DNA of 64,000 nucleotides from Candidatus Parcubacteria bacterium (GCA_016196625.1 JACPXH010000007.1:150461-214460); one strand, 5' to 3'; numbered from the stretch's first letter, positions 1,723 to 51,542 are shown. Translations and numbers: made by a program. The notes: generated by a model not told the origin, from the letters alone.

Positions 1723-1941
1723 TTACGTGAAGGTGTAGGGTAGGAGCGCCAGGAAACGTGCTCGTTTGATCGCCGTGGCCAGTGCGCGCTGGTGTTTGGC
1801 GCACAGCCCCGTTCGGCGAGGCGCGGCAATCTTGAATTGCCCCGTCAGAAACCGGCGCAGGAGTTCGGCGTCTTTGTAATCAATCACTTTGAGGTTGTGC
1901 TTGCAGAAGTGGCACTCTTTTTTTTGTACGATGGGGATCAT
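1723..1941 (-). CDS. rpsR: 30S ribosomal protein S18
   Basis: 72 aa with the S18 signature CHFCKHNLKVIDYKDAELLRRFLT...GLCAKHQRALATAIKRARFLALLPY. Confidence 0.9.
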   Translation of the reverse strand: MIPIVQKKECHFCKHNLKVIDYKDAELLRRFLTGQFKIAAPRRTGLCAKHQRALATAIKRARFLALLPYTFT

Positions 1942-2096: not shown

Positions 2097-2561
2097 TTAG
2101 AACGGTATATCTTCCAGTTTAATTCCTCCCCCCTCGTCGGTCGGTTCATCGAGCTGAATTTCCGGCAGGTCTTCTTTTTTGTTTGCGCTTGCCGGGCTGG
2201 GAGCAGCCGGTTCGCTGGTTTCGCTTCGGTCGGCCCGGCGCGGTCCCAGCTGCAGCCCCTCGGCGATGATTTCGGTGCGCCAGCGTTTCTGTCCGTCCTG
2301 CCCCTGCCACGAGCGCGTCTGAAGCCTTCCTTCCACAAAAACGAGCCGGCCCTTGGCCAGGTACTGGCCCGCGATCTCCGCGAGCTTGCCCCACGCAACG
2401 ACCCGATGGAACTCGGCCTGCTCTTGCTTTTTGCCGTCGGCACCTGACCAGACGCGGTTGGTGGCCACGGTAAAGTTCGTAACCGTTTGCCCCGAGGGCG
2501 TGGTGCGGGTTTCGGGATCCTGCGTTACGTTGCCGAGGACCATGACGCGGTTGAAGTTCAT
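2097..2561 (-). CDS. ssb: Single-stranded DNA-binding protein
   Basis: OB-fold SSB sequence (MNFNRVMVLGNVTQDPE...TNFTVATNRVW...VVAWGKLAE) and an acidic C-terminal tail DEPTDEGGGIKLEDIPF. Start at ATG 2559-2561. Confidence 0.85.
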   Translation of the reverse strand: MNFNRVMVLGNVTQDPETRTTPSGQTVTNFTVATNRVWSGADGKKQEQAEFHRVVAWGKLAEIAGQYLAKGRLVFVEGRLQTRSWQGQDGQKRWRTEIIAEGLQLGPRRADRSETSEPAAPSPASANKKEDLPEIQLDEPTDEGGGIKLEDIPF

Positions 2562-2563
2562 AA

Positions 2564-2702
2564 GGAGTAATCGCGAATATACGAATTGTTGCAAATATAC
2601 AAATTACGGGATTTAGAGTAATCGCTAATATACGAATGTACACAAATATACAAATCGCCGCATTCGTATATTATTTCAGATTTGTATATTCGCGATTACT
2701 CC
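2564..2702. promoter_or_regulatory. Iteron-like AT-rich array occupying the whole rpsF-ssb intergenic space
   Basis: Four direct copies of the 11-mer AATATAC(G/A)AAT and two inverted copies ATT(C/T)GTATATT. Three copies of GTAATCGC. Exact 19-bp outer inverted repeat GGAGTAATCGCGAATATAC / GTATATTCGCGATTACTCC. Confidence 0.5.
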
Positions 2703-3160
2703 CACGACTGCAAAATTTCTTCCAGTTTCTTGTCGAAGTCTTGCCAGCTGGTTGCTTCCTTTGGTCGTGGGGTCGCCGCGCCTTCTGGTTGGGGCGTCGG
2801 CACTGCCGCGGCCGGAGCGGGACGGAATTTCAGGCGGGCTGGAGAAGGTTTGGTCGGCCTGCGGACCTGTTGGACTAATAGGTACCGAAGCAGGCTAGTC
2901 TGGTGCCGGAGTTCTTCTTTGAGTTTAGCCGAAACATCGGCTGTGGCGGTTACGGTCATCACGCCAAAGTAGGCTTGCTTTTCGTGTTTGATCTCATAGG
3001 CGAGCCGGCGCCGTTTGGAGGTTTCTTCGCGTTCAATAATGCCGCCTGCGTCCTGGATGATCTTCGCAATTTTGGCACTCTCTTGAACAGCTGCGTCCTC
3101 CTCAAGGTTGCCCGAGAGGAGATAGACGAGTTCATAGGGGCGGTAGCGAGTGTCGGGCAT
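2696..3160 (-). CDS. rpsF: 30S ribosomal protein S6 (a longer in-frame ORF runs to 3208)
   Basis: S6 core RYRPYELVYLL...AYEIKHEKQAYFGVMTVTA, and the conserved rpsF-ssb-rpsR gene order. Start chosen at ATG 3158-3160. The P/A-rich C-terminal tail is typical of some S6 proteins. Confidence 0.85.
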   Translation of the reverse strand: MPDTRYRPYELVYLLSGNLEEDAAVQESAKIAKIIQDAGGIIEREETSKRRRLAYEIKHEKQAYFGVMTVTATADVSAKLKEELRHQTSLLRYLLVQQVRRPTKPSPARLKFRPAPAAAVPTPQPEGAATPRPKEATSWQDFDKKLEEILQSWE

Positions 3161-3303
3161 GGTTTGGTTGTTGGGGCCATGATAGCTGAACGTCAGGTGA
3201 TTTGGCAATAGGGCGGCTACAAAAAAGCAAAAAGTTTATACCCCGAGCCGGGTCGAGGGCAAGATGACAAGGCGCCGTTGTTCTTGAATTTTCACGGTCC
3301 CGC

Positions 3304-3337
3304 CCCGCTCGCTTCGGCGAGCGGGACTCTGCTTTTT
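3304..3337 (+). terminator. Plus-strand-oriented intrinsic terminator-like hairpin with no annotated + strand gene upstream
   Basis: Stem CCGCTCGC / GCGAGCGG (plus a C-G pair) with TTCG loop, followed by ACTCTGCTTTTT. Confidence 0.35.
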
Positions 3338-3353
3338 AGTATGCGCTATTGTT

Positions 3354-3389
3354 CCTCCGCTACAATGTATCGATACATTGTAGCGGAGG
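3354..3389. repeat. Perfect 36-bp palindrome CCTCCGCTACAATGTATCGATACATTGTAGCGGAGG (family copy 1)
   Basis: Exact reverse-complement symmetry, checked base by base. The 28-bp core is identical to those at 50002-50031 and 50525-50560. Confidence 0.9.
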
Positions 3390-3393
3390 TGTC

Positions 3394-4440
3394 TTAACCG
3401 ATTCGAAATTCTATTACTTCTCCGTCGCGCATGATGTACTCTTTTCCCTCTGACCTGATTTTACCTAGTTCCCGCGCCTTGGCCCAGGAGCCGATGGTGA
3501 GGAGCTCCCGCCAGTCAATCACTTCAGCACGGATGAAGTTTTTTTCGAAATCAGAGTGGATTTTTCCGGCGGCTTTCTGCGCGCTCGTTCCCCTCGTGAT
3601 GGTCCAGGCGCGCGTTTCCTTGGGGCCGGTCGTCAAAAATGAAATAAGCCCCAGCACGTCGTAGCAAGCAGTGATCAAAAGCGGCAGGCGCGGCGCCTCA
3701 CCGAGCTCATGCTGCTCTGCTTCGGTCAGCGAGGCGAGATCGAGTTCGTGTTTAAGGTTGAGTGAGATGACGGGCGTTGCCTGCGGCATGTCGAATGCGG
3801 TGTGCGCGGTTTCGGGACCATCAGTATTTAGGACGCAGATGAGGGGTTTGAGCGTGAGGAGCTGTACGTCAATAAGGGATTCTTCTTCCGGTTTGAGTGG
3901 TTCGTTTCGGGCTGGCTCGCCGCGCCCCAGAAGTTCGTGAAGCCGCCCGTAGACCGCAAGGCGTTTTTTCGATTCCGGGTCGCCGGCGCGCGCTTCACCC
4001 TCGAGTTTCTCAAGACGTTTTTCAACCAGCGCGAGATCCGCAAGGGCAAGTTCGGTTGAGATGGTGTCAATGTCCGCGGTCGGATCAACGCGGCCCTCAA
4101 CGTGGATCACGTTGGGGTCTTCGAACGCGCGCACCACTTCGGCAATCGCGTCCACCGCTCGGATGTGCGAGAGGAATTGGTTACCCAGTCCCGCGCCTTT
4201 GTGCGCTTCTTTGACAAGCCCGGCAATGTCCACAAATTCGATTGCGGTTGGCACGATTTTCGCCGAGTTCGACATCGCGGCAAGCTTGTCCAGTCGTTCG
4301 TCAGGCACGGCAACCACGCCCACGTTGGGGTCAATGGTGGCAAACGGGTAGTTCGACATATCCACCTGTTTTTTGGTCAACGCCGAAAACAGCGTGGATT
4401 TCCCCACGTTCGGAAGCCCGACGATGCCGATGGAGAGCAT
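3394..4440 (-). CDS. ychF: Ribosome-binding ATPase YchF (Obg-family GTPase)
   Basis: N-terminal G1 motif in MLSIGIVGLPNVGKSTLFSALT, and a TGS-like C-terminus (RAWTITRGTSAQKAAGKIHSDFEKNFIRAEV). Start at ATG 4438-4440; the in-frame N-terminal extension to 4518 was not adopted. Confidence 0.85.
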   Translation of the reverse strand: MLSIGIVGLPNVGKSTLFSALTKKQVDMSNYPFATIDPNVGVVAVPDERLDKLAAMSNSAKIVPTAIEFVDIAGLVKEAHKGAGLGNQFLSHIRAVDAIAEVVRAFEDPNVIHVEGRVDPTADIDTISTELALADLALVEKRLEKLEGEARAGDPESKKRLAVYGRLHELLGRGEPARNEPLKPEEESLIDVQLLTLKPLICVLNTDGPETAHTAFDMPQATPVISLNLKHELDLASLTEAEQHELGEAPRLPLLITACYDVLGLISFLTTGPKETRAWTITRGTSAQKAAGKIHSDFEKNFIRAEVIDWRELLTIGSWAKARELGKIRSEGKEYIMRDGEVIEFRIG

Positions 4441-4500: not shown

Positions 4501-5763
4501 ATGAAGCTGCGTGCCCAAATCGTTTTTGGTCTAGTGGGTGTCATGTGGCTCGTGTTGGCGCAGCCAGCGCCTGGATTTGCCCGGGCATGGTACTACCCCA
4601 TGGATGCGCACGAGGCGCGGGCCTATCTCAAGGGGTTTGGTCAGCTCATTGATACTGTCTTCTATGAAGGGCAGGAAGAGCTCTTTCCATTCAACCGTTT
4701 CTACGGCTATCATGCGGGCGTAGACTTGGAGGTGTCTCCGTCTGAATTGAGCACGCGCGTGCCGGTCTATGCCGTGACCTCGGGCACGATTTCGTACGTC
4801 GGCTCCCTAGCTGGCTACGGCGGTGTCATTCTCCTGCGATTGGACGGTGAGGCTACGACGGCGCTGTACGGGCATGTAAAGATCACCGACCTGCCCTACC
4901 GCGTTGGCGACCAGGTGAGCGCGGGGAGCGTTCTCGCCCACCTCGGTGATGCTTTCAGCGCTGAAACGTCCCGCGAGCGCAAACACTTGCATTTCGCGAT
5001 CTACCGCGGCACGGATCAGTACTTTCGCGGCCATGAATCCACGCCAGAGCAGCTCTCTGCAAGGTGGGAAGATCCGCTGGCGTACCTGCTCGAGCACGGC
5101 GCCGTCTCACCCCGCCCCGCAGCCCCAGTCGCCACGAGCACTCCGCCGTTGGAAAATGGTCAGCCTATCTTATATAATTATAATGGCAGACACGTTCCCA
5201 TGAATCGCACCATCATTTTTGTTATTGCTGGGGGTTTAGCATTGCTTGGCCTGGGCGTGGTCGCGTACCGGCAGGCGCGGTCTCCAGAGACCCCTCTGTC
5301 TGTTCCAGTGCCTGCGTCAGCGCCGGCCCCCGTACCCGCCCCGCCCACTGTCGAACCCGCTGCCGAAGTCGATGAGGCGGCCGCGTTCCTCATTTATACG
5401 AATGGCCTCAAACGGAGCTTTGCCGCGCCCATGTACCACCGGCGTTCTCCGGATGCGTACCTCGAGGCGAGTCAGCCCGCCATAGTTCGCGTCAAGAAAC
5501 GCGGCGTGACTTGGGATGAATTTTTCAAGACGCTGCCGTTTCGGCTCACGGGCGAGTGCCTCACTACCGGCACGGGCGACACCTTCTGTAGCGGCGGTGA
5601 GGGCGAGCTAAAATTCTATCTCAACGGCGTTCGCGTGGCTGACCTCCTCGATCGGCAGATTCATGATGGCGATCGGGCTTTAATCTCTTACGGTGTTGAC
5701 GGCGAAGCCCAGATCCAGAAACAATTCAGTCAAGTGCCTGATCCTCGGAGCCTGACCGATTGA
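4501..5763 (+). CDS. M23-family (LytM-like) metallopeptidase with a signal peptide and a C-terminal transmembrane segment plus extra domain
   Basis: M23 signature FYGYHAGVDL...YGHV...HLHFAI. Hydrophobic N-terminus. Pro/Ala-rich linker and a TM helix near residue 235. Confidence 0.75.
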   Translation: MKLRAQIVFGLVGVMWLVLAQPAPGFARAWYYPMDAHEARAYLKGFGQLIDTVFYEGQEELFPFNRFYGYHAGVDLEVSPSELSTRVPVYAVTSGTISYVGSLAGYGGVILLRLDGEATTALYGHVKITDLPYRVGDQVSAGSVLAHLGDAFSAETSRERKHLHFAIYRGTDQYFRGHESTPEQLSARWEDPLAYLLEHGAVSPRPAAPVATSTPPLENGQPILYNYNGRHVPMNRTIIFVIAGGLALLGLGVVAYRQARSPETPLSVPVPASAPAPVPAPPTVEPAAEVDEAAAFLIYTNGLKRSFAAPMYHRRSPDAYLEASQPAIVRVKKRGVTWDEFFKTLPFRLTGECLTTGTGDTFCSGGEGELKFYLNGVRVADLLDRQIHDGDRALISYGVDGEAQIQKQFSQVPDPRSLTD

Positions 5764-7112
5764 CTGTGACGAGACTCAATCTATCAATTTTCCACGCCTA
5801 CGACATCCGGGGCAGGTATCCGGATGAGTTGAACGAAGAAGCGGCTGGAGAGATCGGCCGGGCGGTGAGTGAGATGGCGCGGCAATTCGAGCCCGGCCCG
5901 GTTCTGGTGGCCCGCGACGGCAGAATCTCCTCGCCGCAGATTGCCGCTGCGGTGATGCGTGGCCTTGTTGCCGGCGGCAGCCGCGTGGTTGACATGGGTG
6001 TTGCGACCACGCCACTTTTGTATTTCATTGCGGCTCGGCACGAGGTGTCGGCCGGGGTCATGGTAACGGCGTCGCACAGCCCGCCGGAATACAACGGTCT
6101 CAAGTTCGTCCGTCGGGGTTCAGTATCGTTCCCGGAGTTCGGCGGGTTGGATGAGCTTCGGCAGGTACTCACGCGGGGTCTGCCCGAACCACGCGCAGGC
6201 GGAGCGATCGAGCAGGCCGACTACTCCGACGAATACGTCGCGTTCCTCGTCGAGCATGCACCCGCGGGGCAGTTCCACGTTGCGATTGACTCCGGGAATG
6301 GCGCAGCAGGCGTTATCCTGCCCAAGCTTCTGGGTCGCTTGCCGAACGTCGTTGCTGAACGGCTCAACTTCGCACTCGATGGTTCGTTCCCCGGCCGCGG
6401 GCCAAACCCATTAAAGGAGGGTGCGCTTCAAGGGTTGCAACAGGTTGTTCGAAGCAGCGGCTGCCAATTGGGCGTTGCTTTTGATGGCGACGGCGATCGG
6501 GCGCTATTTGTGGATGAATCTGGCGTTACCATACATCCAGACTTCATTACCGCCCTCCTCGGCCGGGCGCAGCTTGCGAAGCAGAAGGGTGCGGTCGTCT
6601 ATGATATTCGCTCCAGCAAGATCGTGCCGGAGACGATTCGGCTGGCCGGCGGAGAGCCAGTCGTAAGCCCCATCGGGTACACGTTCATCAAGCAGGCGTT
6701 GCGCGAGCAGAGAGGGATTTTCGGCGGGGAGCGCTCGGGCCACTACTACTTTCCCGAGATGCAGTATATTGATTCGGGGTTGTTCGCGTTTCTGCAGCTG
6801 CTCAAGGCGCTGGCGCGGGAGGGCAAGCCGCTTTCTCAACTCATCCTGCCGCTTCAGAAGTATGTTCAGTCGGGTGAGCTCAATTTCCATGTTGCCGATC
6901 CCGCCGCTACGATTGAAAAAATCGCCGAGCATTACGTTGACGTAAAGCAATCGCGGCTCGACGGGCTCACCGTAGAATATCCGGAGTGGTGGTTTAACCT
7001 GCGGCCATCAAACACCGAACCGCTGGTGCGGCTTAATGTGGAAGCGAATGATTCCGTGACGCTTGCTTCTCGGCAGGCGGAGCTGACCGCGCTTATCAAC
7101 GGCCGTTCCTGA
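5760..7112 (+). CDS. Phosphoglucomutase/phosphomannomutase-family mutase (GlmM/ManB-like)
   Basis: Active-site loop TASHSPPEYNGLKF, metal-binding FDGDGDR, and the N-terminal AYDIRG motif. The TTG at 5760 overlaps the upstream stop; a GTG at 5766 is an alternative start. Confidence 0.85.
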   Translation: MTVTRLNLSIFHAYDIRGRYPDELNEEAAGEIGRAVSEMARQFEPGPVLVARDGRISSPQIAAAVMRGLVAGGSRVVDMGVATTPLLYFIAARHEVSAGVMVTASHSPPEYNGLKFVRRGSVSFPEFGGLDELRQVLTRGLPEPRAGGAIEQADYSDEYVAFLVEHAPAGQFHVAIDSGNGAAGVILPKLLGRLPNVVAERLNFALDGSFPGRGPNPLKEGALQGLQQVVRSSGCQLGVAFDGDGDRALFVDESGVTIHPDFITALLGRAQLAKQKGAVVYDIRSSKIVPETIRLAGGEPVVSPIGYTFIKQALREQRGIFGGERSGHYYFPEMQYIDSGLFAFLQLLKALAREGKPLSQLILPLQKYVQSGELNFHVADPAATIEKIAEHYVDVKQSRLDGLTVEYPEWWFNLRPSNTEPLVRLNVEANDSVTLASRQAELTALINGRS

Positions 7113-9517: not shown

Positions 9518-9850
9518 TTAGGACAACACAGTCCCATTGAGCACTTCCCGATCCGGGTGTAGCAACACTGGCTTTCCATCCTCATTTGCACATACGATCA
9601 TCCCTTGGCTCTCAAGTCCCATGAATTGTCGTGATTCGAGGTTCGCGAGCACCGGGACTTGCTTGCCGATGAGCGTCGATGGTTCGTACCACTTTGCGAT
9701 GCCCGCGATGATTTGGCGTGGTCCGCCAGCTGGCGGGGCGCCGAGATCAACCATGAGCTTGAGCAGTTTTTCTGAACCCTCAATGCGCTCGGCTGCGGTG
9801 ATGGTGCCGATGCGGAGGTCGAGCTTTTTGAAATCGTCAATCGTAATCAT
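9518..9850 (-). CDS. tRNA-binding protein (CsaA / Trbp111 / MetRS C-terminal-like OB fold)
   Basis: 110 aa with DLRIGTI...AE and ...LKL..VDLG...RQI..G; the family assignment is by resemblance. Confidence 0.75.
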   Translation of the reverse strand: MITIDDFKKLDLRIGTITAAERIEGSEKLLKLMVDLGAPPAGGPRQIIAGIAKWYEPSTLIGKQVPVLANLESRQFMGLESQGMIVCANEDGKPVLLHPDREVLNGTVLS

Positions 9851-9852
9851 AC

Positions 9853-10040
9853 GAGAAGTTCAAATGCCAAAATCCTAATACCAAATCAAGTTCAAAGTGA
9901 CACCGCGTGTCATCCTGAGCCGAGAGGCGAAGGATCTCGAGATCCTTCGGTCGCTGCGCTTCCTCAGGATGACAACCGAGTTGTATTTTGGGTTTTGGGT
10001 TTGATTTGTCATTTGAGCTTTGACATTTGACATTTCTGTT
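9853..10040. repeat. Composite intergenic element: CAAAT-word arms (family copy 2) enclosing a GC-rich palindromic element GTCATCCTGAG...CTCAGGATGAC (9909-9973)
   Basis: Left arm AGTTCAAATGCCAAAATCCTAATACCAAATCAAGTTCAAAG. Right arm TTTTGGGTTTTGGGTTTGATTTGTCATTTGAGCTTTGACATTTGACATTT. The inner element has 11-bp terminal inverted repeats and an internal GATCTCGAGATC palindrome. Confidence 0.55.
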
Positions 10041-10101: not shown

Positions 10102-11919
10102 CTATACTTCTATAATAACAGGAAGTACCATCGGACGTCGTTGTGTCTTCGTGAACAAGAACTGCCCCAGTTTATCGCGGATGTTGTCTTTGACGTAGGC
10201 CCAGTTGATGGGTTTTTCGTGTCCCGTGGAGCGCGCCACGATTTCTTTAACTTTTCGCCGCATCAAGTTCATGAGGTCACGCGAGTCTTTCATATAGATA
10301 AACCCGCGCGAGATGATGTCAGGTTCGCCCCGCACCTTGCCAGTTTCAGAATCCACCACGGCAATGGTTACCACCATGCCGTCTTGGGCCATCACCTGCC
10401 GGTCCCGGAGCACGACGTTGCCAACGTCGCCCACGCCCAAGCCGTCCACCATGACGTAGTTGGCCGGCACGCGCTCCTTCAATTTTATCAGTTTGTCGCG
10501 GGCGAGCGCCACCACCTCGCCGTTCTCCGCGATGAGGATGTTCTGTTTGGGGATGCCTATTTCTTCGGCCAGCTCCGCATGGTTGAACATCATGGAATAC
10601 ATGCCGTGAATGGGCATGAAGAACTTGGGTTTGAGCAGCCGCATGATTTCGCGCTGATCTTCCCGGCGGGCATGCCCAGACGTGTGCAGCCCCAGATCGG
10701 CAGACTGGTAGACTTTGGCACCCTGTCGGTAGAGGTTGTCTTTGAGTGCCTGGACCGATCGTTCGTTGCCCGGAATGACCGAAGAGGAAAAGATGACCGT
10801 ATCACCCTTCTCAATGGCGAGGTCGCGGTGTTCCTTATTGACGAATCGCATTAAGACCGCATTGTCTTCGCCTTGCGCGCCGGTGCACAGGATCGTAAGG
10901 CGCCCCGCTGGATAGTTTTTGGCCTCGCGCGCGGTGGTGAAAGTGCCCTTTTGAGCCTTCAGGTACCCGAGTTCTTTGGCGATTGCCACGTTCGCTTTCA
11001 TGGAAAAACCTTCCACGATAACTTTGCGACCGTACTGTTCCGAGAGGCTCACCAGCTGCTGGATTCGGTTCAACATGCTGGAGAAGGTGGCCACGATAAT
11101 CCGACCCGCGGTGTTCTGGAAGACTGCCTCGAGGTTTTGCTGTACCGCTGTCTCTGAGATCGAATGCCCTTCCACTTCGGCCCCGGTTGAGTCAGACATA
11201 AGCAGCAGCACCCCCCGTTTGCCGAGTGCGGTGAGCGTGGCAATATCCGCGGGTTTCTCGTTGAGCGGCGTCAGATCTAATTTGAAGTCCGAGGTGTGGA
11301 TCATGAGGCCGACAGGAGTGGTGATGGCAAGTCCCAAGTCGTCAGGGATGGAGTGGTTCACATGGAAAAACTCCACTTGAAAATTGCCCAGCACCACCTT
11401 GTCTCCGGCTTTAATCTGATGAATTTCAAGTTTCGGCAGGCGCGGGAACTCTTCGTGGCGTTTGAGGAGCATGCCGCGCGTGAGGGGAGCGGTCCAGATG
11501 GGCGGGTTGCCGAGTTTTTCGACGAGGTAGGGCAGAGCGCCAATGTGGTCGTAGTGGCCGTGGGTGACGAGAACTCCGCGGATGCGATCTCTCTTGTCTT
11601 CGAGGTATTTGACGTTGGGGATGAGGAAATCAATGCCTGGCATGTCTTCGTCTGGGAAGCCGAAACCAACGTCGACGATGATGATATCGCCCGCGTATTC
11701 GAGCACCATCATGTTCCGTCCCACTTCGCCCAGTCCCCCCAAGGGGATAATGCGGACGTGATCGGTCTGTGGCCGGGTGCTTGCGGCTGAGGGGAACGGC
11801 GCCGCCGCGGGATGGGCGGGTTTGCCGTGAGGGGTTGTGGCCGTGCGGCGCTGGCGCGGGCGTTCGCGCTGGGCCGAGGCGCTGGCTAGAACGAATGAAA
11901 AATCGTTACGCATGTGCAC
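10102..11919 (-). CDS. rnj: Ribonuclease J (metallo-beta-lactamase / beta-CASP)
   Basis: HGHYDHIGALPYL metal-binding motif, and RNase J N-terminal RIIPLGGLGEVGRNMMVLEY. An unusual ~55-aa Pro/Ala-rich N-terminal extension sits before the conserved start. Confidence 0.85.
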   Translation of the reverse strand: MHMRNDFSFVLASASAQRERPRQRRTATTPHGKPAHPAAAPFPSAASTRPQTDHVRIIPLGGLGEVGRNMMVLEYAGDIIIVDVGFGFPDEDMPGIDFLIPNVKYLEDKRDRIRGVLVTHGHYDHIGALPYLVEKLGNPPIWTAPLTRGMLLKRHEEFPRLPKLEIHQIKAGDKVVLGNFQVEFFHVNHSIPDDLGLAITTPVGLMIHTSDFKLDLTPLNEKPADIATLTALGKRGVLLLMSDSTGAEVEGHSISETAVQQNLEAVFQNTAGRIIVATFSSMLNRIQQLVSLSEQYGRKVIVEGFSMKANVAIAKELGYLKAQKGTFTTAREAKNYPAGRLTILCTGAQGEDNAVLMRFVNKEHRDLAIEKGDTVIFSSSVIPGNERSVQALKDNLYRQGAKVYQSADLGLHTSGHARREDQREIMRLLKPKFFMPIHGMYSMMFNHAELAEEIGIPKQNILIAENGEVVALARDKLIKLKERVPANYVMVDGLGVGDVGNVVLRDRQVMAQDGMVVTIAVVDSETGKVRGEPDIISRGFIYMKDSRDLMNLMRRKVKEIVARSTGHEKPINWAYVKDNIRDKLGQFLFTKTQRRPMVLPVIIEV

Positions 11920-15899: not shown

Positions 15900-16046
15900 G
15901 AGCGTGGCGGAGGTCTGTTCGGCGAGCGCTCGTTCGTCCAGCGACTCACTCGCTCTGTCCTCGCCGGTCGCCGAGCACTCAACGTGTTGAGTGCTCGGAC
16001 CGTGCCGACCGGCTGCGGATGTCGTCTCAAGACCTCCGCCACGCTC
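15900..16046 (+). other. Structured element, copy A (candidate ncRNA or cis-regulatory leader). It fills the intergenic space between the DUF360 gene and secG. Strand is undetermined.
   Basis: 17-bp closing stem GAGCGTGGCGGAGGTCT / AGACCTCCGCCACGCTC. Conserved block TCGTCCAGCGACTC. An 11-bp hairpin GAGCACTCAAC / GTTGAGTGCTC. Conserved tail CTCGGACCGTGCCGACCGGCTGCGGATGTCG. A second copy is at 22986-23223. Confidence 0.4.
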
Positions 16047-22985: not shown

Positions 22986-23223
22986 GGCGCCGCACTCCCT
23001 CAGCGATCGTTCGCTCGTCCAGCGACTCGCAATCAAGGAATGCTCCGGGGCGGCGCATTCGGCCTCGCGTCCCTCGATACAACTCGGGACAAGCTCGGCC
23101 GGCGCCGCCCGTTCGGAACCAAGCAGTTGGCTCCTCACCCTCGCTGGCGGCCGATCGCTCAACGCGTTGAGCGCTCGGACCGTGCCCGCCAGCTGCGGAT
23201 GTCGCTTCGGGAGCGACGGCGCC
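22986..23223 (+). other. Structured element, copy B, between uvrA and the three-gene operon. It is the same family as 15900-16046 with a ~110-bp insertion.
   Basis: Shares TCGTCCAGCGACTC (23015-23028), the hairpin GATCGCTCAAC / GTTGAGCGCTC with compensatory base changes relative to copy A, and the tail CTCGGACCGTGCCCGCCAGCTGCGGATGTCG. It has its own closing stem GGCGCCG...CGGCGCC. Confidence 0.4.
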
Positions 23224-37896: not shown

Positions 37897-40800
37897 TTGG
37901 TTTTCGATCTTCATATGATCCGTATCAAGCGTCCCCCCAAGGGGAAAAAGCGCGACTCGCTCACCAAGCGTCTCTTTGCCGCAGGTGCTGCAGGGGTAAC
38001 CATGTTTACCGGCGGCGTCCTTGGAGTGCGTGCGGCCGGAACAGTCAAGCCGCCCTTCGCGCAGGTGCGGCTGCGCACGGATCGCGTTTCGGGTGCAGGG
38101 CGGACGCCGGGTGAGGCTGGCGCGGGTACGAAAATTTCTACAGAGGAGGAAGCGCGCATCAAGGCTGAAACCGGTCGCTTCTTGGGCGAACTGCGCAAAG
38201 TAGCAGGGGAGACTGACAGCCAGAGTTTCTTTGCCCGGGTGCTGAACATCTCTCCGGCCGAAGCCGGGTCAGACCTCAATGCTGCGATTCAGGATTTGTA
38301 TAACTCCGGCAATTTGACCCAGGCCGTGCAGAGCGTGCTGGCCAGCGGAGCATATACCCCCGATCAGGCAGCTGCCGCCCTTCGAGAAGCTGAAACAGCG
38401 GGCGTCATCCCTGCGGGAACGACGCTTGATATCGCCGTCAACCTCGGCGCAACGCCCGAGCAGGCGGCTGCGTACGCCCAGCCCTCCTACGTGCCATCAT
38501 CTGAGGCGGATGTCTACGTTCCGCCGCCTGCAGCTGCGGTGCTTCCCGCAGCACCCGTTGCCCCGATTATCCCGCCGCCGGCTGTGGAGTCCGGACCGCC
38601 GGTTTTACCGTCCGTGCCCGCCGCGGCGCGGACCCCCGAAGTGCCACCGCTTCCACCGCCGGTCATCCGCATTGATGAAGAGAGAGGCATCGGGCATGTG
38701 GCCATGCCCGCGGCGCCGGTCGTGCCGGTTGCCCGCGAGGAGCCGACCCCGACGCCTGAACGTACGGTGCAAACCGAAGGCGGGACGTTTATCGTGACGC
38801 CAGGAGGCGCGGTGTTAGATGCAAACCGGAATCCAACCCCCTACTCCGTTGATGCAGGCGGACAAGTGAGTTATCAGGGCACGCCGGTTGGTCGGCTCGA
38901 ATTCCAGCAGCCCGGTATTGAGGAGATGCCTCGAGAAGTCTTTATCCCTACTCCACCACCAGCGCCACCGGTCCAAGCTCCAGGACCCGTCATTATCGTC
39001 CCGCCGGGCGAAAGCATAGTCGTCCCGGAGGGCGAGAGCAGATTTGTGTTAACGCCGGACATCAAGCAGGCTATCCAGGACATCTACCAGAACGAGGGCC
39101 TTGATTCACTCACCAAAGCAGTGGGCGTTCAGATCAACAAGGGCGTGGTGAGTCCGGCCGATGCGGCCCAAGCGCTGCAAGCTGCTGGCATTCCTGTTGC
39201 AGACATTGCCTACATTGCCCGAAACCTCGGGGCCACGCCCGAGCAGATCGCGGCGCTGGTGCCGTCAGCTCCGCCTCCGCCAGCTAAACTGGAAGAGCCG
39301 ACGCTTCCTCCGCCGTCCGCTGCCCCGCTTCCCAGAGGCGCCGAACCCTCCGCACCGCCGGTAGAGATCGGCCCGCCCGTCTGGCAGATTACCCATCCCA
39401 CAGTCCCGGGCCTCACTGTTGACGTTGACGCCGATGGCAACTTCCGTCTGCCTGTTGATTCTGGACTGGGCGAGTTCTCGGGCGCCTTCGGCCAAGTGAA
39501 TAAAGGTACGCTCACCTATACAGTGCGTAGCACCAGCGGCACCGAACAAAGTGGTGATCTGCGGGCTGAAGGTTGGCTCATTGCCGCCGTGACTCCCGCC
39601 TCGCCGGCCAAGCCAGCTGCGCCAGCTCCGGCCCTTCCAACCCCTGCCCCAGTCTTTACCCTCCACATTGGGGATAAAACTTTTCAGATCGACCCCGAGA
39701 CCTTAATCGTCACCAAACCAGAAAGCGACCCTAATCAGTACGTGCTCTATCCAGCTGGTACACCTGGTCAGTACATCATTACAGTGAATGGAGTCTCTAC
39801 CTTTCGGTTAGACACCGCCACCGGCAACCTCACCCAGTTCACTCCCGCTGGCGAGACCAAACCCATTGGGCGTTTTACGCCGGGTGGCGCCGCTGGTCCT
39901 GGTAATACTTTTACGTTTACCCCGAATCCCCCTGCCACTACCACCCCGACATCAACCTCGCCTGTATCATTTCCCGGCGCAACGCCAACGACGACCGTTC
40001 CCGTCATACCCAGACCAGTTCCCCCGGGCGTGATCGGACCCAGTCAACCGCACGAGCTATGGACGAACGTCGTCATTGATAACCAGCGCTATAACCTCTA
40101 TCAAGACGGTGCCGTCAATGCCGTTGATGCGGCGGGCGGAGAAGTCGCGACGCCGTATGTCATTCACTACAACGAAAACGCTCAGAAGTATGAACTCTGG
40201 CGTGCTGCCAATCACGGTGAAACGGTATTTGCGATTCTCAACCCGAGCGGTCAGCTCGAGCAAACTTTCCATCTTTTTTTCAGCCCGGGTCCCTTCGGTA
40301 CCACCCTTCGGGTCAACGATCGTCCCTACCGGATCAATGCGGATGGCACGGTGCTGAATCCGCCCGGCGACACTCAGCGGTACTTTATGGATGTACGCGG
40401 GAACATCCATCTGAACGATCAATACGGTCCCTTCCTCTACCTTATTCTTGTGGACGGTACCGTCCGCGATGCTCAACATCGAACGGTTGGACGAGTAGAA
40501 CCCAGCGGTACTTTTGTTCCGACACCGGGATCGGTTGGCGCGCCTGTACCGGCCCTTCCAACCCCTGCCCCAGTCTTTACCCTCCACATTGGGGATAAAA
40601 CTTTTCAGATCGACCCCGAGACCTTAATCGTCACCAAACCAGAAAGCGACCCTAATCAATATATGCTGTATCCAGCCGGCACACCTGGTCAGTACATCAT
40701 TACAGTGAATGGGGTCTCTACCTTTCGGTTAGACACCACCAACGGCAACCTCACCCAGTTCACCCCAGCTGGTGAGACCAAACCCATTGGGCGCTTCACG

Positions 40801-43800
40801 CCCGATGGCGCCGTGGGTCCGGGCACTACTTTCACGTTTACCCCGAGCCCCGTCGCTACCACCACGCCAACGTCGACCGCGCCGATCTCTCCTGCGTCCA
40901 CTCCCGCGCAGCCAGCTGCCGGGCCTGCCACCGTTCCCCCGGCTGCAGAAGCCGCACCTTCAGTTCCTGCCGCTACCCCCGCTCTCCCCGAGGTGCGCGT
41001 GCGTATCAACGACGCGATCTACCGGATCATGCCCGACGGCACGGTGGTGAGCCCGCCGTCTGACCCGAACACCTACTCGGTGACCCGCAACCCTGACGGC
41101 ACCGCTGCGATCAGCCGCGAAGGGCAGGTGATGTATACGGTCAACGCCCAAGGCGAAGTCCGCACTCCCGACAACCAGACAGTGGGCCAGTTTGATGTGC
41201 CCAAGGCTGAAGTCGTAACCGACTACACCGCCGGCCGAGTTGACTACTACCTGCGTAAAGCCGAGAAAGTCGGCCAAACTGATGCCGCTACGATTCGGGA
41301 GCTCGCGGACAGTGGCGTCAGTCCCACCGTGATTGCGGAGCGTGCTCTTAAAGAGTGGGGCGGAGATGCGCGGCGGGTCGCGGTGGCGGCAGCGGAAGCC
41401 GGTGCTGCGCCTCACCTGATTGCCGAGGTTTTGAAAACGAAAGAATTGAAGGTGCAAAATCCAGACGGCACGAGTCGAACCGTGGACGCTTTTACCTTGG
41501 CTTTGGAGCAAGCAGTGGGGCAGGTAGCCGCGGTGCCGGAATCAAACCAAAGGCTGCAGGGGATGGGTTCGATTGCCGATTTTCTGCGCCGCGCTGGCAT
41601 CTCGGCCCAAGAAGCCAGAGATCGGCTCAAGGCCGCTGGTTTCACTGACGATCCCACGTCCATCCTGAGCGCTGTTGGTTACAGCGCCGAGGGGCTGGCC
41701 ACCACCTTCCCCGTAACTCCGACCCAAATTCGGGCCGTCAATGTGGACGGCACGTGGCTCGCGCTCTCGCCCGATGGGACGGTCTACATTCCGCAGGCTG
41801 GCAGCGCGGCTGAGCTCAAAGTGATTGACGGTGAGACCCGGATCCTGTTCAAGGACCGCACCGGGCGCATCGTACCGCTCCCCATAGCCCGGATCGAGCA
41901 GGTTTCAGACGTAGACCTCCTGCGTTTGGCGCAAGCCAAGTTTCAGGCCCAGGGGTTGACCCGGCCTCAAGCCAATGAGCGGATTTTTCCCCTGGCGGTT
42001 GCTGCCGGTTGGAGCGATCCCGGCCGGGTTATTCGGGCTGCGCTGGAAGCCGGCTTTTCTCCGACAGACATTGTGAGCGGGCTGGCCAGCATTGACAGCG
42101 CTCGCCGCGAGAACAATCAAGAGAGCCATTATCTGGAAGAGGGGATCATGGCGGCGCTCGATGCCGCGCGAAGTCCTGAAGCGCGGCAGGCGACTGCGGA
42201 TACGATCATCGCGGCCCTGCGCGAATCCGACCTCGGTCGCGAGCGGCTCGATGAGCTTATCCAGTACCTCGCCCCGCGGCTCAACGTGCCGGAAAGTCAG
42301 CTTCGCGAGCAGTTGGGGGTTAATCAGCCTTTGTATAAAGCGGCGTTTCGTCTCGAACTGGACCTACCTCGTTATCTTCCAGAATCGCTGCGGCAATCCC
42401 AGAAGGTATTCACTGGAAGATCGCTTCGGGTTATAAGTCAAGTCCCCATACACGAATACGCCGCCACGTTGACTTCGGTTTCCACTGGTCAGCAAACAGC
42501 GCCTGCTGTTACGCGCAAAAGTTCGCACGTCATTAAAATCGCCATTCCGGCAGAACTCAGGGCTGATCAATATCAGCTTACCATTACAATTGATGGTCAG
42601 GCGCAAACATTTCCCATAGAAGTGGAGCGCCCACTCCAAAAGGCCCAAGCGCCCGTGGAGGTTGTGCCCTTGACGTCAGTCGAACAGGCTGCGATTGCGT
42701 TCAGGACCACTCTGTGCACGAATTGCGCATCTGAAGGAGTGTTTAGCGGAGATCCCAATGACGCGAATAAACTCATTCATATCAGCAATACCAGAGATTT
42801 GGTGCGATCAACTGACGGCGGTAGGTCTTGGCACGCGTTGTCGATCGATAACGCCGCACAGTATCCGCGCGCCCAGGTCTTATATGTTGGCGATCCCAAA
42901 GTAGTGAGTTTACCCGATGGTTCATTTATAATCACCAGCCTCGGTAGCGATCATAATAAGAATTTTACTTTAGGCGGATTGATATACCGAGGCACCTACA
43001 CGGGCGGGCTTAACGCCACCTTTTTTCAAGACATCCCTTCAAATTTGCCGGCGAACCAAGATATCGTTGTGGATAGACCAATTTTGGCAGTCGATCAGAG
43101 AAACTCTGCCGTATATATTGCCGTCAATGGCGCCTGGTTTGGCGAAAGAGGAGAATCCGACTTCGAACATGCAATCTACTTCTCTCAGGACGGCGGTCAA
43201 ACATTTAAGAAGGGCAGGATCGGTCATGGACTCGCAATCCACTCGATGACAGTTGGTGCCGACGGGACGCTCTACGCCGCTCGTCTCGGCGAGCCGCATG
43301 AACTGTTCCGCTTTTCTTCTCTCGACCCGGTGCGGTATGAAGTGCTACCGTTACCGGGCCGTCATCAGACCTGGGAGGGTTCGGTAAGAATATCGACCAC
43401 CAGCCGACGTGCCTGGGTTGGCTACGAAGGTCCGGAAGTCATCGCCGATACTAGCCCAACAAGTCCTCATCAAGGGCGGTTGTATGCGGTGTGGTCGCAG
43501 TCCGAGCGGGTCGTTGATGATCAAAACTTTGAGTATAAGCACTATGGGTTTAACCATGACGTATTTGTCAGTTATTCCGACGATCGAGGCGTTAGTTGGT
43601 CTCCGCCAGCGAAGGTGAACGACGATATCGGATCCGGCGATCAAGTATTCCCGTCAGCCCGACTTGACACGAACGGTGCTCTTCACGTTGCCTTCTTCGA
43701 TCACCGGAATAATCAGAGTGACGCAGTGTTCGACGTGTACTATGCGAAGTCCACCGACGGTGTGAATTTTTCCAAGAATCTTAGGTTAAACGAGGAGCCG

Positions 43801-46800
43801 ATCCCAAACGAGTATGGCGGACGGTTCCTTGGCGACTACATAGATATGGTCATGCCATATCCGGATCGTGTCTATGTCGCATATCCAGACGCGCCACTGT
43901 TTGCCAATGGTAAACGTTCAACCATGGCAACGGCCGTGAAGTTTGTGGAGATTTCCCAGGCGGCGCTTGCGCCACTCATGCCGTCGAGGGGGGCTTTCAG
44001 CCTTGATCGTTGGCGCACAGCAGGAGAACGCATAGAGACACTCCATTCGCTTCTTGTATCAGGGTGGACGCCCGCAGAAATCATCCGAGCCCTTGCCGCG
44101 GTAGACGCATCTGCCAAGGCCGCAGGCCGCGAGACTCATTACCTCGAAGAGGGGATCATGGCGGCACTGGAAGCCGCGCCAAACCCAGAAGCGCGGCAGG
44201 CGACGGCGGATACGATCATCGCGGCTCTCGGCGAAGCGGGGTTGAGCCGGGAGCAGACGCAAGAGTTGATTCGGAATCTTGCCCCGCGGCTCAACATGAC
44301 CGAAGAACAGCTGCGTAGTGCATTGGGGATCGGCCAGCTTGCGCGTCAAACCTCTCGACTCACGCGACAAATGACCCGTCAGACTCGCCCTACCGTCCCG
44401 CGCGCGACACTCGTCAAAGTAGATGAGCCGGAGTTTGCCAAGCAAGAGTTGGTGTTGCCGCCCACACTGTTGCCCGCGCCAAACTCGCGCGATGTTCAGG
44501 GCTTTTTAGGGTCAGCTTCAAGCGAGGTGGCTTTCCAGCTTGTTTCACTCATTCGCGACCGGTTCCAGCTTGGGGCAAGCGCGTCGCGCCGCGGTTCGGT
44601 TGAACTGGGCGACGAGGTTACGATTACTCTCCAAGTCAAAGGCCAAGATGTTCCGCCCGACAAATTAGTTACGTTCGACGCCCTCGTGCCTTCAAAGTTC
44701 CGGTACGTGTCCGGGTCCTTAGTGGTCAACAATGTGCCATCGTCTGATCCGGAATTCATCCTCCGCACACCCTTCGCCACCGTCGTCGACGAAGAAACGC
44801 AGGTCCTCCGGCTTGAGCACGGGGTCTGGTCTTACGGAAACACCACGCGGACGTATCGGTTCCGAATGCGCGCTGATACTATCGGCCGGCCCGGCAATTT
44901 GGACGTGAAGGCGTATCTGGACGTTGGTCCGCAGTTGGCCCAGATTGCCGGGGTGGGTCCTTTCACCACGAGCGTGCGCACGAGCGGTCCGCGGCGAGAA
45001 GCCCAGCAGACAACGGAGCGCAACGACGAATTCTCCGGTTATGCCTTTGATCAAACGTTCTCCGGCGGCCGGACGCTGGGCGAAGCTCCGCTGCCCGGGC
45101 GGGCGGGCGAGTTGGTGCCGGGTGAAGCGAATCAGTTTATGCCCGCGCAGGCGATTGAACTTTCGCCGCACGAACGCAACACCATTTCGGTTCGCTATCA
45201 TTTTACGAAACGCTCGCCGGATGCCGCCAATACCCTGCGGCTCAAATACACCGTCGAACTGCCCGGAGAGGTCGAATACCTGTGGCGGTCAGCCCGAATT
45301 GACGGGGCGTTGATTGACACCGAGCCTCTCCGGACACTCCCCGAAGAGCGTACGCCGGCCGGGACGCGACTTGTTACGATAGTGGATCGAGAGACGCCGG
45401 TTGACGAACGGCCGCACGAACTTTCGTTTCAAATTTTTACCGCGGCTGCGCCAGAAACCCAGGCGCGCGCCCCTTTGGTGACGCAGCTGTGGGTTAACGA
45501 CAAGCTGGTCCGAAAGGATCGCTGGGAGCCGATTATCATCCGGGCAGCACAGCCCGCGCCGCCGCGAGACGCCGCGCCGGCTCCGGGCGCCCCTTCGGCG
45601 CCGCCCATATCTGAACCGCCCTCTCCGCCCACCAACTGGGAGCCGCGGTACGTCAGGTTCGACTCAAGCCTTGAGTTTTCCCGGCGCGAGGTGCGGGCTG
45701 GTGAGCGGGTTGACATTACGGCGCGGCTCGAGCGGATCGATTCCGGAGGCCCCATTGAGAATTTTCAATACCTTTTGGAGCTGTCTCCGGGATTACGATT
45801 CGTCGCGGATCAGGGCGTGTCAGTTGATTCTACGCAGCGCCTCGAGCCCGAGGTTTCCGAACGGAACGGCATCCAGCGAGTACGGGTTCGCATGCGGTTT
45901 CCGGCCGGAAGTACAAGGGCTACAGGGGATGTATCAGCTGGGTTCGGGGATCGGCCGACCACGTCAATCCGTTTTACCGCGCAGGCCGCGGCGGATGTAT
46001 CGCCGGGCGAGAAACTTTTGGTGGGTAAGTTTTCCGGCGACGGGTTGCAGCTTGGGCTTGACGCCGCGAATGTCTTGGTTCGCGCGCCTGAAGTCCAGCC
46101 TCGCTTTACCGGCGAGATGTTCACGATTCCTGCGGCCGAGGCGCGGCCGGGAGAAGCACTGGCGGTACAAATCCGACTCTTTCGTACTGATGCGGCGGGT
46201 CGGGTTGGAGATGTCGTTTATGAGCTGGAAGTGCCGGCTGGATTTGAGTATGTTACCGAGTCAGGCGGAGCATCAATTGATGGTCGGTCTCTTGCGGTCA
46301 CGGTGGTGTCTCGGACCGACGGCGCGCAGGTGGTGCGGACCGATTCGTTCTTTTCTCCCGGCGGCAACAATTCCCAGGCTATTACCGTGTTCCTGCGTGC
46401 GAAGTCAGATGTTCCCGCTGGCGAGAAAACCTTTGTGGGTCGGATTTCGGTCAGAAACCGTCAGGTCCTCGAACAGCGCACGAGCGTTCAGGTGCCGGAG
46501 CTGGCAACGGTTCGGATTGACCCGTTCCTGTTCTTCTATGGAAGAGCGACGGTGGGCGATGAGTTTACTGTCTATGCCGATCTCGGTCGTCGCGATACCG
46601 GCGGGCCGATCCCGCAGGTAGATTATCGTCTCCAACTGCCTCGCGGATTCGAATTTCTCCCCAACAGGTCCGATGTGTACTTTTGGGATACGGGCCGCTC
46701 CCAACCGCTCAACGCGGGCGTCTCGGACGGGGTCGTTACGGCCACAATCGCAAACTTTCCCGCCGGGCCGGGGGGGCGCACGATTCGATTTCGACTGCGC

Positions 46801-49226: not shown

Positions 49227-49273
49227 AGATGAAGTAACGTTACTATGTATTGATATATAGTAACGTCTCATCT
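49227..49273. repeat. AT-rich imperfect inverted repeat between the giant gene and lemA
   Basis: AGATGAAGTAACGTTACTAT / ATAGTAACGTCTCATCT arms around the centre GTATTGATAT. It contains the ATGTAT half-site seen in the palindrome family. Confidence 0.4.
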
Positions 49274-49311: not shown

Positions 49312-49878
49312 ATGCCTATGAGCCTCACCTGGATTTTTAGCGTCGCGGCAGCGCTGGTCGTTGTTTGGTTTATCCTAGCCTATAACAGTTTGGTCCGGCG
49401 TCGGACACGGGTGGACGAAGGTTGGGCCGACATTGATGTTCAGTTAAAACGGCGCTACGACCTCATTCCGAATTTGGTCGAGACCGTGAAGGGTTACGCG
49501 GCTCACGAGTCTCAAGTTTTTGAGCGGGTTACGTCGGCGCGGGCCGCGGCCATGGGAGCGCAAAGCCCGCAGCAAAAGGCCGCGGCCGAAGGCATGCTGG
49601 CCGGAGCCCTGAAGAGTTTGTTTGCCGTGGCTGAGGCTTATCCCCAATTGCGCGCGGCAGAAAACTTTACGCGCTTGCAGCAAGACCTCGCAGATACCGA
49701 AGACAAAATCCAGGCCTCGCGGCGCTTTTATAACGGCGTCGTGCGCGACTACAACATTGCAACCCAAGTTTTCCCCACAAGTATCGTGGCGGGGCTGTTC
49801 GGTTTCACCAAGCGCGAATTCTTCGAGATTGAAGAAGAGCGCGCTGAAGAGCGCTCGCCGGTGAAAGTTTCGTTCTGA
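49312..49878 (+). CDS. lemA: LemA-family membrane protein
   Basis: N-terminal TM helix, then YNSLVRRRTRVDEGWADIDVQLKRRYDLIPNLVETVKGYAAHE, typical of LemA. Confidence 0.8.
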   Translation: MPMSLTWIFSVAAALVVVWFILAYNSLVRRRTRVDEGWADIDVQLKRRYDLIPNLVETVKGYAAHESQVFERVTSARAAAMGAQSPQQKAAAEGMLAGALKSLFAVAEAYPQLRAAENFTRLQQDLADTEDKIQASRRFYNGVVRDYNIATQVFPTSIVAGLFGFTKREFFEIEEERAEERSPVKVSF

Positions 49879-50001: not shown

Positions 50002-50031
50002 GCGCTACAATGTATCGATACATTGTAGCGC
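50002..50031. repeat. Perfect 30-bp palindrome GCGCTACAATGTATCGATACATTGTAGCGC (family copy 2), 18 bp upstream of the TrpR-like gene
   Basis: Exact symmetry. Same 28-bp core as copies 1 and 3, with different but still complementary flanks. Confidence 0.9.
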
Positions 50032-50524: not shown

Positions 50525-50560
50525 CGACCGCTACAATGTATCGATACATTGTAGCGGTCG
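50525..50560. repeat. Perfect 36-bp palindrome CGACCGCTACAATGTATCGATACATTGTAGCGGTCG (family copy 3), 12 bp downstream of the TrpR-like gene
   Basis: Exact symmetry with the identical 28-bp core. Confidence 0.9.
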
Positions 50561-50642: not shown

Positions 50643-51542
50643 ATGGCCACCCTTTACACCCACATTGATCAGAACATTGCCAAGACTTGGGCGCTTATGG
50701 GAGCGTTCTTGGCGCTGGTGATTGCGATCGGGTTTCTGTTTGCGCAAGCCATGGGCGAGCCAGCAATTCTTTACATCGCGGTGGGCTTTTCGCTCTTCAT
50801 GAATTTCCTCTCGTATTGGTTTGCCGACAAGCTCGTGCTCTCGCTTTCCCGCGCCCGCGAGATCAAGCGTGAAGATCACGAAGAGCTTTTTCGGATAGTT
50901 GAGAACTTGGTCATCGCCGCGGGCCTGCCCATGCCCAAGTTGTATATAATAGAAAGTGCGGCCTCGAACGCCTTTGCAACGGGCCGGAACCCCGAGCATG
51001 CAGCAGTTGCGGTTACGCGGGGGTTGCTCGAGCGTTTGAACCGGCAAGAACTTGAAGGCGTACTCTCACACGAACTTGCTCACATCGGTAACCGCGACAT
51101 GCTGGTGGCCACCATCGCGGTCATCCTCGCGGGATTCATCGCGATCCTCGCCGATTTCTTCCTGCGCATTAGTTTCTATGGTGGCGGCCGGCGCGAAAGC
51201 CGCGAAGGCGGCAACGCCCTTATGGCCTTGGCTATTGTCGCGGCGATTCTTGCGCCGATTGCAGCCACGCTTCTGCGCCTCGCCATTTCCCGAAAGCGCG
51301 AGTTCCTCGCGGACGCATCGGGCGCGCTGCTCACCCGCAACCCCGAAGCGCTTGCGTCAGCCCTCGTCAAAATTTCCACCGATTCCGATCCCTTGGAGAC
51401 CGCCCGCGTCCAGACCGCGCATCTGTTCATCGACGATCCTTTCAAGAACCGTCATGGCAAGACGCGGTGGTTTATCAAACTGTTCATGACCCATCCGCCC
51501 ATAGAAGAACGTATACGAGCATTGCGCGGTATGGAGGTATAA
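50643..51542 (+). CDS. htpX: Zinc metalloprotease HtpX (M48)
   Basis: HELAHIGNRD zinc-binding motif. TM topology and a conserved C-terminus (FMTHPPIEERIRALRGM). Confidence 0.85.
   Translation: MATLYTHIDQNIAKTWALMGAFLALVIAIGFLFAQAMGEPAILYIAVGFSLFMNFLSYWFADKLVLSLSRAREIKREDHEELFRIVENLVIAAGLPMPKLYIIESAASNAFATGRNPEHAAVAVTRGLLERLNRQELEGVLSHELAHIGNRDMLVATIAVILAGFIAILADFFLRISFYGGGRRESREGGNALMALAIVAAILAPIAATLLRLAISRKREFLADASGALLTRNPEALASALVKISTDSDPLETARVQTAHLFIDDPFKNRHGKTRWFIKLFMTHPPIEERIRALRGMEV

Follow-up and report, generated by a model that had tools for sequence, protein, structure and literature searches.

The closest described relatives of the system presented here are small DNA-binding proteins of the TrpR fold. 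HisR (the YerC protein) and TrpR bind lineage-specific palindromes of 20 bp and are often autoregulated (PMC9413887). For the Patescibacteria, our search of the literature on a Trp repressor, its regulon and palindromic repeats returned nothing relevant, nor any description of a CPR regulon. Very few recognisable regulators are found in these bacteria. Here we analyse palindrome A, which lies just downstream of ychF in a stretch of 64 kb from a Candidatus Parcubacteria bacterium (hereafter the window, meaning this whole stretch). Comparison of its sequence with that of related loci leads us to propose, with a probability of about one half, that palindrome A serves a TrpR/YerC-family protein as a remote binding site which is incorporated in the 3' hairpin of ychF.

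A family of palindromes in the window

The following features of the window are used below.

1723–1941, minus strand: rpsR, in the rpsF-ssb-rpsR operon
2097–2561, minus strand: ssb, in the same operon
2696–3160, minus strand: rpsF (ribosomal protein S6), first gene of the operon
3179–3208, minus strand: promoter-like site of rpsF, TTGCCA-N18-TATCAT, conserved in L081, L082 and L083
3304–3337, plus strand: GC-rich hairpin with a T run; stem at 3304–3325, then CTCTGCTTTTT; on the rpsF strand an A run precedes the stem
3354–3389, no strand assigned: palindrome A, type 1a, perfect over 36 bp, with the shared 28-bp core at 3358–3385
3394–4440, minus strand: ychF, 348 aa, identical to P0031 / MBI3305183.1
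8378–8409, no strand assigned: palindrome D, type 1b, perfect over 32 bp, CACTTTCTAATGTATT|AATACATTAGAAAGTG (= CACTTTCTAATGTATTAATACATTAGAAAGTG), 15 nt past the trpS stop codon and upstream of a SET-domain gene
49237–49266, no strand assigned: palindrome E, type 1c, 30 bp with one mismatch, ACGTTACTATGTATTGATATATAGTAACGT, ending 45 nt upstream of the lemA ATG
49312–49878, plus strand: lemA, upstream neighbour of the TrpR-like gene
50002–50031, no strand assigned: palindrome B, type 1a, 30 bp, ending 17 nt upstream of the TrpR-like start codon, 124 nt past the lemA stop codon
50049–50513, plus strand: gene of a TrpR/YerC-family HTH protein of 154 aa (P0001 / MBI3305218.1, 'Candidatus Parcubacteria bacterium'), the presumed binding protein
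50525–50560, no strand assigned: palindrome C, type 1a, 36 bp, 12 nt past the TrpR-like stop codon, with the htpX ATG following 83 nt downstream
50643–51542, plus strand: htpX (M48 peptidase), downstream neighbour, with a promoter-like TTGGCA-N18-TAAAGT just before its ATG

Palindrome A reads CCTCCGCTACAATGTATC|GATACATTGTAGCGGAGG. It lies 4 nt past the ychF stop codon, and 194 nt separate it from the rpsF ATG further downstream. An earlier note on this DNA had described it as a perfect 36-bp palindrome between ychF and the rpsF-ssb-rpsR operon, some 47 kb away from two copies of its core that flank a TrpR-like gene, with flanks that differ between copies yet remain complementary. Our analysis bears this description out. 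The arms are of 18 nt each with zero spacer, the gene calls place ychF, rpsF, ssb and rpsR all on the minus strand, and palindrome A is separated from copy B by 46.6 kb. The window contains three exact copies of the 28-mer CGCTACAATGTATCGATACATTGTAGCG, at 3358, 50003 and 50529 (0.00 expected from 100 shuffles). The perfect palindromes around them measure 36 bp at A, 30 bp at B and 36 bp at C, and the bases next to the 28-mer are CCTC/GAGG at A, G/C at B and CGAC/GTCG at C. Two relatives, D and E, extend the set beyond what the earlier note listed. The core ATGTATnnATACAT is common to all five sites with at most two mismatches, against 0.6 sites expected, and three of the five fall within 1.3 kb around the TrpR-like gene. 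The slot after trpS is occupied not only in the window (by D) but also in L081, which carries there a palindrome of type 1c, as palindrome E (751–776, GTTACTATGTATCGATACATAGTAAC). Palindrome E may be the site of a third paralogue of the TrpR-like protein. We know of no match between the spacing of these palindromes and that of the LexA, NrdR, CIRCE, OhrR, AcrR, NsrR, cre, parS or dif boxes.

Folded as RNA, the palindromes reach -20 to -29.5 kcal/mol. For palindrome A, both strands fold to between -27 and -29.5 kcal/mol, with z-scores from -6 to -7.6, and the hairpin at -29.5 kcal/mol has 16 bp in its stem and 4 nt in its loop. It thereby offers the stable stem-loop just downstream of a stop codon that is typical of intrinsic terminators; no T run (U tract) follows its stem on either strand, and the other terminator-like hairpins of the window likewise lack T runs. 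Palindrome A might therefore be a plain structural hairpin, serving as the ychF terminator or as an mRNA-stabilising 3' hairpin, shared with B and C by copying or homogenisation and read by no protein. Its position and stability speak for this possibility, as does the general lack of T runs. However, the ordinary terminator-like hairpins of the window are GC-rich, have real loops and are not repeated, and a purely structural role leaves unexplained why the AT-rich core is kept between genomes of 45% and 57% GC. Together with the evidence discussed below, this makes a plain hairpin a rather unlikely account.

Scans of wider collections with the 20-mer pattern ACAATGTATNNATACATTGT matched 13 genome stretches, 56 metagenome stretches and 1 viral stretch. 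Beyond Parcubacteria/Sungbacteria, most of the matches were long palindromes from unrelated taxa, and a TrpR-like gene was absent from their vicinity. Since a palindromic 18-base pattern has nine free positions, and perfect palindromes are very many in terabases of DNA, chance matches have to be expected; we set the out-of-clade matches aside as presumably fortuitous and do not count them as members of the family. In Bdellovibrio-like MAGs (L001 1538–1639; L006 1280–1311 and 3086–3113; L036; L066), palindromes of the form ..ACAATGTATATATACATTGT.. stand beside ORFs of one protein family. By eye these proteins resemble AbiEii toxins, and the palindromes may be operators of that toxin–antitoxin system; they are probably unrelated to the palindrome A family.

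The window also holds other palindromic elements. An element of ~75 nt is repeated at ~15955–16035 and 23135–23215 around a CIRCE-like palindrome (CCGAGCACTCAACGTGTTGAGTGCTCGG, CCGATCGCTCAACGCGTTGAGCGCTCGG), and its outer stem changes in a compensatory manner between the copies (GCCGGTCG/CGACCGGC versus GCTGGCGG/CCGCCAGC). Both copies lie in stretches of 1–2 kb in which no ORF matches Pfam; one of the two is downstream of uvrA. The element has no match in Rfam and looks like a structured RNA or the end of a mobile element. At 9900–9980, a 22-bp perfect palindrome (CGAAGGATCTCGAGATCCTTCG) is nested in an inverted repeat (GTCATCCTGAG...CTCAGGATGAC), upstream of the gene at 9518–9850 and downstream of a large ORF at 10102–11919.

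TrpR-like genes are bracketed by lineage-specific palindromes

P0001 matches the Pfam family Trp_repressor (PF01371) with an E-value of 2.4e-6, just above the cutoff. Against NCBIfam yecD_yerC its family scores 19–37 bits, below the cutoff of 42, and we therefore regard it as a distinct subfamily. A sequence search of the PDB matched three YerC/HisR-like crystal structures (3kor, 3g1c and 3frw). The same three are the best Foldseek hits of the AlphaFold2 model (target TM-score 0.75–0.84), followed by E. coli TrpR, including its operator complex 1tro. With a pLDDT of 77 and a poorly modelled C-terminal extension of ~50 residues, P0001 thus models as a TrpR/YerC(HisR) fold. With a threshold of E ≤ 1e-10, a profile search recovered 2,175 representative clusters, and with E ≤ 1e-30 it recovered 192. 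Given these 192 clusters, and given that most of the best 150 relatives are 140–155 aa long, the subfamily is a large one; it is also widespread, with thousands of relatives in metagenomes.

We compared the gene in nine lineages: the window, L014, L016, L017-19, L007, L077, L078, L079 and L080, whose proteins are 32–90% identical to P0001. In all nine, the TrpR-like gene is bracketed by two copies of a palindrome that is specific to the lineage. The upstream copy invariably lies 4–30 nt before the ATG, and the downstream copy lies at most 30 nt past the stop codon (in L079 it overlaps the stop codon), with the exception of L007, where the distance is 151 nt. A core of ATG-N8-CAT is common to the whole family, and the bracketing palindromes compare as follows.

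Window: GCTACAATGTATCGATACATTGTAGC
L007 (Sungbacteria): as in the window, but with a TA centre
L016: CTTTCTAATGTATTAATACATTAGAAAG
L017: CACTTCAATGTAATGATACATTGAAGTG
L078: CTATGATTCGAATCATAG
L079: TGAATGAATTAATTCATTGA
L080: TTTCAATGTTTTAAAACATTGAAA
L077: TGATGATCCGAATCATCA

The conserved core spans 24–28 bp, and the recognition helix of the TrpR-like proteins varies in parallel with the palindrome. The arrangement occurs in diverse gene neighbourhoods (X being the TrpR-like gene): lemA-X-htpX, which is kept in L014 and L017-L019, argS-X, ftsK...X-recA, dnaB-X-tRNA and NTP-transferase-X. A TTGACA-17-TAATCT promoter abuts the upstream palindrome in L077, placing the site at about +1; a convincing promoter for the TrpR-like gene was also looked for in the window, and none was found there. 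Directly upstream of lemA, the window encodes a protein of 3,738 aa with internal repeats (37897–49113), whose orthologue in L014 reaches 3,936 aa or more. CPR bacteria typically have giant surface proteins.

The pairing of protein and palindrome extends to a paralogue. P0006 (MBI3305262.1, locus L016) is bracketed by CTTTCTAATGTATTAATACATTAGAAAG, which is the sequence of window site D; its accession falls in the same block as MBI3305183.1 and MBI3305218.1, which makes it in all likelihood a paralogue that the same MAG encodes on another contig. Each of the two paralogues, P0001 and P0006, thus has its own palindrome type around its own gene and at least one remote copy. Taken together, the bracketing in nine lineages, the pairing of paralogues with palindrome types and the precedent of HisR and TrpR make recognition of the conserved core by the protein the simplest reading. 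A plain hairpin accounts neither for the bracketing nor for the paralogue-specific types, and the short, imperfect palindromes of the AT-rich lineages suit a protein site better than a structural element. We envisage that a dimer of P0001 would read the central ~24–28 bp (CTACAATGTAT-CG-ATACATTGTAG, with the core ATG-N8-CAT), in the way that TrpR and HisR read their 20-bp palindromes. At its own gene, P0001 would bind the copy before the ATG, resulting in autoregulation, and also the copy after the stop codon.

Food for discussion is the orientation of the bracketing copies, which are direct repeats wherever asymmetry permits the test (L017, L077, L078 and L079), with up to 31 identical nucleotides. 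Regulation needs no such arrangement, and this counts against our reading. The direct repeats could stem from gene conversion between nearby sites, or from an origin by duplication or recombination. They also raise the possibility of recombination sites (dif/pdif-like sites or cassette att sites), in which the 28-bp core would be organised as 11+6+11, the TrpR-like gene would be a module between direct repeats and palindrome A would be a solo site. The length of the core would suit such sites, its likeness to dif being presumed on our part, and the flanking repeats take in asymmetric bases and, in L079, even the stop codon. However, the window ORFs that were scanned with Pfam include no recombinase gene. 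Moreover, the bracketing persists down to ~32% protein identity, and the lemA-X-htpX order is stable at 59–90%, which argues for a maintained function and not for the scars of insertion. We consider recombination sites very improbable.

The ychF–rpsF spacer and the outer arms

The earlier note had tied palindrome A to the TrpR-like protein and suggested that it might be an operator of a regulon. The tie is strengthened by the bracketing in nine of nine lineages and by the pairing of P0006 with palindrome D (type 1b), whereas a plain operator of the rpsF operon does not fit. Palindrome A starts ~150 nt upstream of the conserved rpsF promoter, with a conserved hairpin in between, and copy A therefore lacks the promoter overlap of a classical operator, an observation that also counts against the reading we prefer. 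One could still imagine that the TrpR-like protein, bound at A, represses or activates rpsF-ssb-rpsR from a distance, for example through a second promoter-like site further upstream (TTGCCC-N16-TATAAA) or by looping, with the hairpin being incidental. In favour of such a remote operator, each of the five window sites precedes a co-directional gene, at 30–210 nt from its start codon, and a palindrome is kept in the ychF–rpsF slot of three genomes. Additionally, a related palindrome (TCTGTTACAATGTATTAATACATTGTAACAGA) was found at 1299–1318 of the metagenome contig L062, between rplD (L4) and rplW (L23), where the S10 operon is normally tightly packed. Nonetheless, the second promoter-like site is present in the window and L082 only, whereas the promoter ~150 nt away is conserved in four genomes. 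Since a remote operator also explains neither the copies between convergent genes nor the pairing of the outer arms (see below), we judge it unlikely.

The hairpin between palindrome A and the rpsF promoter deserves attention of its own. The earlier note had reported a terminator-like hairpin on the plus strand at 3304–3337, and it is indeed present and conserved in L082. The whole block 3161–3337, its run of T5-6 included, is nearly identical to L082 1880–2057, whereas the nucleotide identity of ychF between the two genomes is only 82%. No promoter or gene on the plus strand and no Rfam family were found for this hairpin. At gathering thresholds, Rfam detected two tRNAs only in the whole window; at E ≤ 5, the region 3050–3500 gave sub-threshold noise only, and L005 and L007 had no match. 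A small transcript from the hairpin region, as the earlier note suggested, is a possibility, and the block may act as the conserved leader of rpsF, stop antisense transcription or encode a small RNA.

A ychF terminator of conserved sequence, which the earlier note had set against a link with the TrpR-like protein, is not what the orthologous spacers contain. In L082, which derives from the same MAG as L017, the ychF–rpsF spacer holds a 50-bp perfect palindrome (1799–1848), and in L081 it holds one of 42 bp (6093–6134). Both belong to another family, fam2 (TTTCCTAATTATATCACGTACGTGATATAATTAGGAAA; arms TTTCCTAATTATATCACG..CGTGATATAATTAGGAAA), each arm of which carries an outward-facing TGnTATAAT extended -10 motif. 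This family is also found upstream of lemA in L017-19 (L017 3758–3795, 38 bp with an unpaired 2-nt centre); it differs from the palindrome that brackets the TrpR-like gene of the same genome. L083, from the same MAG as L014, has at the position of palindrome A just a short hairpin, CCGCTACAGGGTAGTGG, which looks like a remnant that has lost its centre. Its spacer (5893–7085) is expanded by a 1.2-kb insertion, with two small ORFs called on the opposite strand. In the same locus, a 38-bp perfect palindrome (TATCTACACTTTTCCGCGGCCGCGGAAAAGTGTAGATA, 4796–4833) lies between the divergent PGM and ychF genes. The ychF–rpsF spacer is thus a conserved slot for a palindrome whose sequence is not conserved (window, L081 and L082, with the remnant in L083). 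Because fam2 looks unrelated to palindrome A, a structural requirement alone could explain the slot, and this again favours a plain hairpin. In two genomes, the ychF–rpsF junction and the lemA/TrpR-like locus share palindromes, as would be predicted if one factor co-regulated both; a structural need combined with copying within the genome would lead one to expect the same sharing equally well.

Further information comes from the outer arms, which vary between copies while their pairing is kept: CCTCCGC/GCGGAGG in A, CGACCGC/GCGGTCG in C and CGTCCGC/GCGGACG in the L014 downstream copy, the orthologue of C. The sole unpaired change (TCGA to TCAA) falls in the would-be loop; in the L014 upstream copy the outer pairing is lost. 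An alignment of 15 copies shows double changes at pairs 8–15 with almost no unpaired cells, and its covariation score is 0.377, where shuffles give 0.18 and slid registers no more than 0.16. Covariation at the inner positions fits a symmetric dimer site as well as a hairpin and does not discriminate between them. At the outer positions the situation is different: here the copies vary within one genome, where presumably one protein reads them all, and still remain paired, so that a hairpin must be of importance or arise at some stage, be it in RNA or in DNA that is single-stranded or cruciform. These compensatory changes are what a plain hairpin would predict, as are the copies between convergent genes. 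In Sungbacteria three of four copies have such a position, and the downstream copy of L079 fills the 22-nt spacer between convergent genes. At such places there is no promoter to be controlled, and hence a promoter operator is not an explanation for these copies.

Our preferred reading, a protein site built into a 3' hairpin, accommodates both the conserved core and the paired arms. At the sites past stop codons (A, C and D), variable GC-rich outer arms would lengthen the palindrome into a very stable hairpin. This hairpin, probably strengthened by the bound protein acting as a roadblock, would end the ychF transcript or insulate it from rpsF-ssb-rpsR. We infer binding of the protein at the sites, termination by the hairpin and a read-through into rpsF that binding would modulate.

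A more far-reaching interpretation, which we regard as doubtful, is that the CPR TrpR-fold family as a whole consists of self-bracketed modules of protein and palindrome. These would act as a protein-dependent bidirectional terminator or insulator, or as an HTH-based analogue of REP–RAYT systems, and would not form an ordinary metabolite-sensing regulon. This interpretation would cover at least 192 clusters (50% identity, E ≤ 1e-30), at least two paralogues in the source genome and the copies at the 3' ends of other genes. In any case, the finding provides a concrete candidate pair of protein and site, and types 1a and 1b offer a built-in control of specificity. Should the sites also work as terminators reinforced by the protein, this would reveal how transcription units are kept apart in a compact genome whose terminators have no U tracts. 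A REP-like nature would make this the first system of its kind to depend on an HTH protein. Failing both, we would be dealing with an ordinary autoregulated repressor and a small regulon.

Comparison with known systems

The layout of the palindromes is reminiscent of REP/REPIN sequences and their RAYT proteins, and the earlier note had proposed a dispersed REP-like element. In such a system, each TrpR-fold paralogue would be cognate to the palindromes that bracket it, and these would spread to extragenic sites past stop codons. The layout does fit: the palindromes flank their cognate gene, every paralogue goes with a repeat family of its own, solitary copies lie past stop codons and the hairpin stems change in a compensatory manner. 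The fact that different palindrome families occupy the same intergenic slot in different genomes fits as well. Moreover, the CTAC...GTAG ends of type 1a resemble GTAG-tagged REPs (PMC3733652). However, types 1b and 1c and the types of L017, L078, L079 and L080 carry no such tag, and the conserved part is here the apical core and not a 5' GTAG/CGTC tag. According to Pfam, the AlphaFold2 model and Foldseek, the partner protein is an all-helical HTH protein in which HUH and Tyr transposase features are absent, and no gene for an HUH-Y1 (IS200/IS605-like) transposase or RAYT accompanies the palindromes. Copy number is low in the sequence available, with three exact and two related copies in the 64-kb window, four in the 17.8-kb Sungbacteria contig and the flanking two only in the 20-kb L014 locus. 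Signs of recent mobility are missing from the lemA-X-htpX locus, which is stable at 59–90% protein identity. The viral collection yielded one match to the palindrome pattern; a relative of the TrpR-like protein and the fam2 palindrome were both absent from it. We therefore consider a REP-like mobile palindrome improbable, even though the layout fits.

With intrinsic and roadblock terminators, the sites share a stable stem-loop at the stop codon, which by its symmetry could act both ways between convergent genes. The differences are the lack of a U tract, the AT-rich centre, the repeated and conserved sequence and the tie to the gene of a DNA-binding protein. Pairs of operators such as lambda CI OL/OR, lac O1/O2/O3 and gal OE/OI offer another parallel, in that two identical sites ~500 bp apart bracket the regulated gene, and looping would be allowed. 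Here, however, every lineage has its second site exactly where the regulator's own gene ends, and more copies are found at the 3' ends of other genes.

Closest of all are the operators of HisR (YerC/YecD) and TrpR, where a small dimeric HTH protein of the TrpR fold is combined with lineage-specific palindromes of ~20 bp and an autoregulatory site in front of its own gene (PMC9413887). The proteins described here differ from these in their length of ~145–155 aa, in their basic C-terminal extension and in scoring below the NCBIfam cutoffs. Their sites have an ATG-N8-CAT core, unlike the TrpR and HisR consensus, and form perfect hairpins of 30–36 bp and up to 50 bp, with the second copy always past the stop codon. 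The host, finally, is a CPR bacterium, and the CPR genomes of which we know are without amino-acid biosynthesis.
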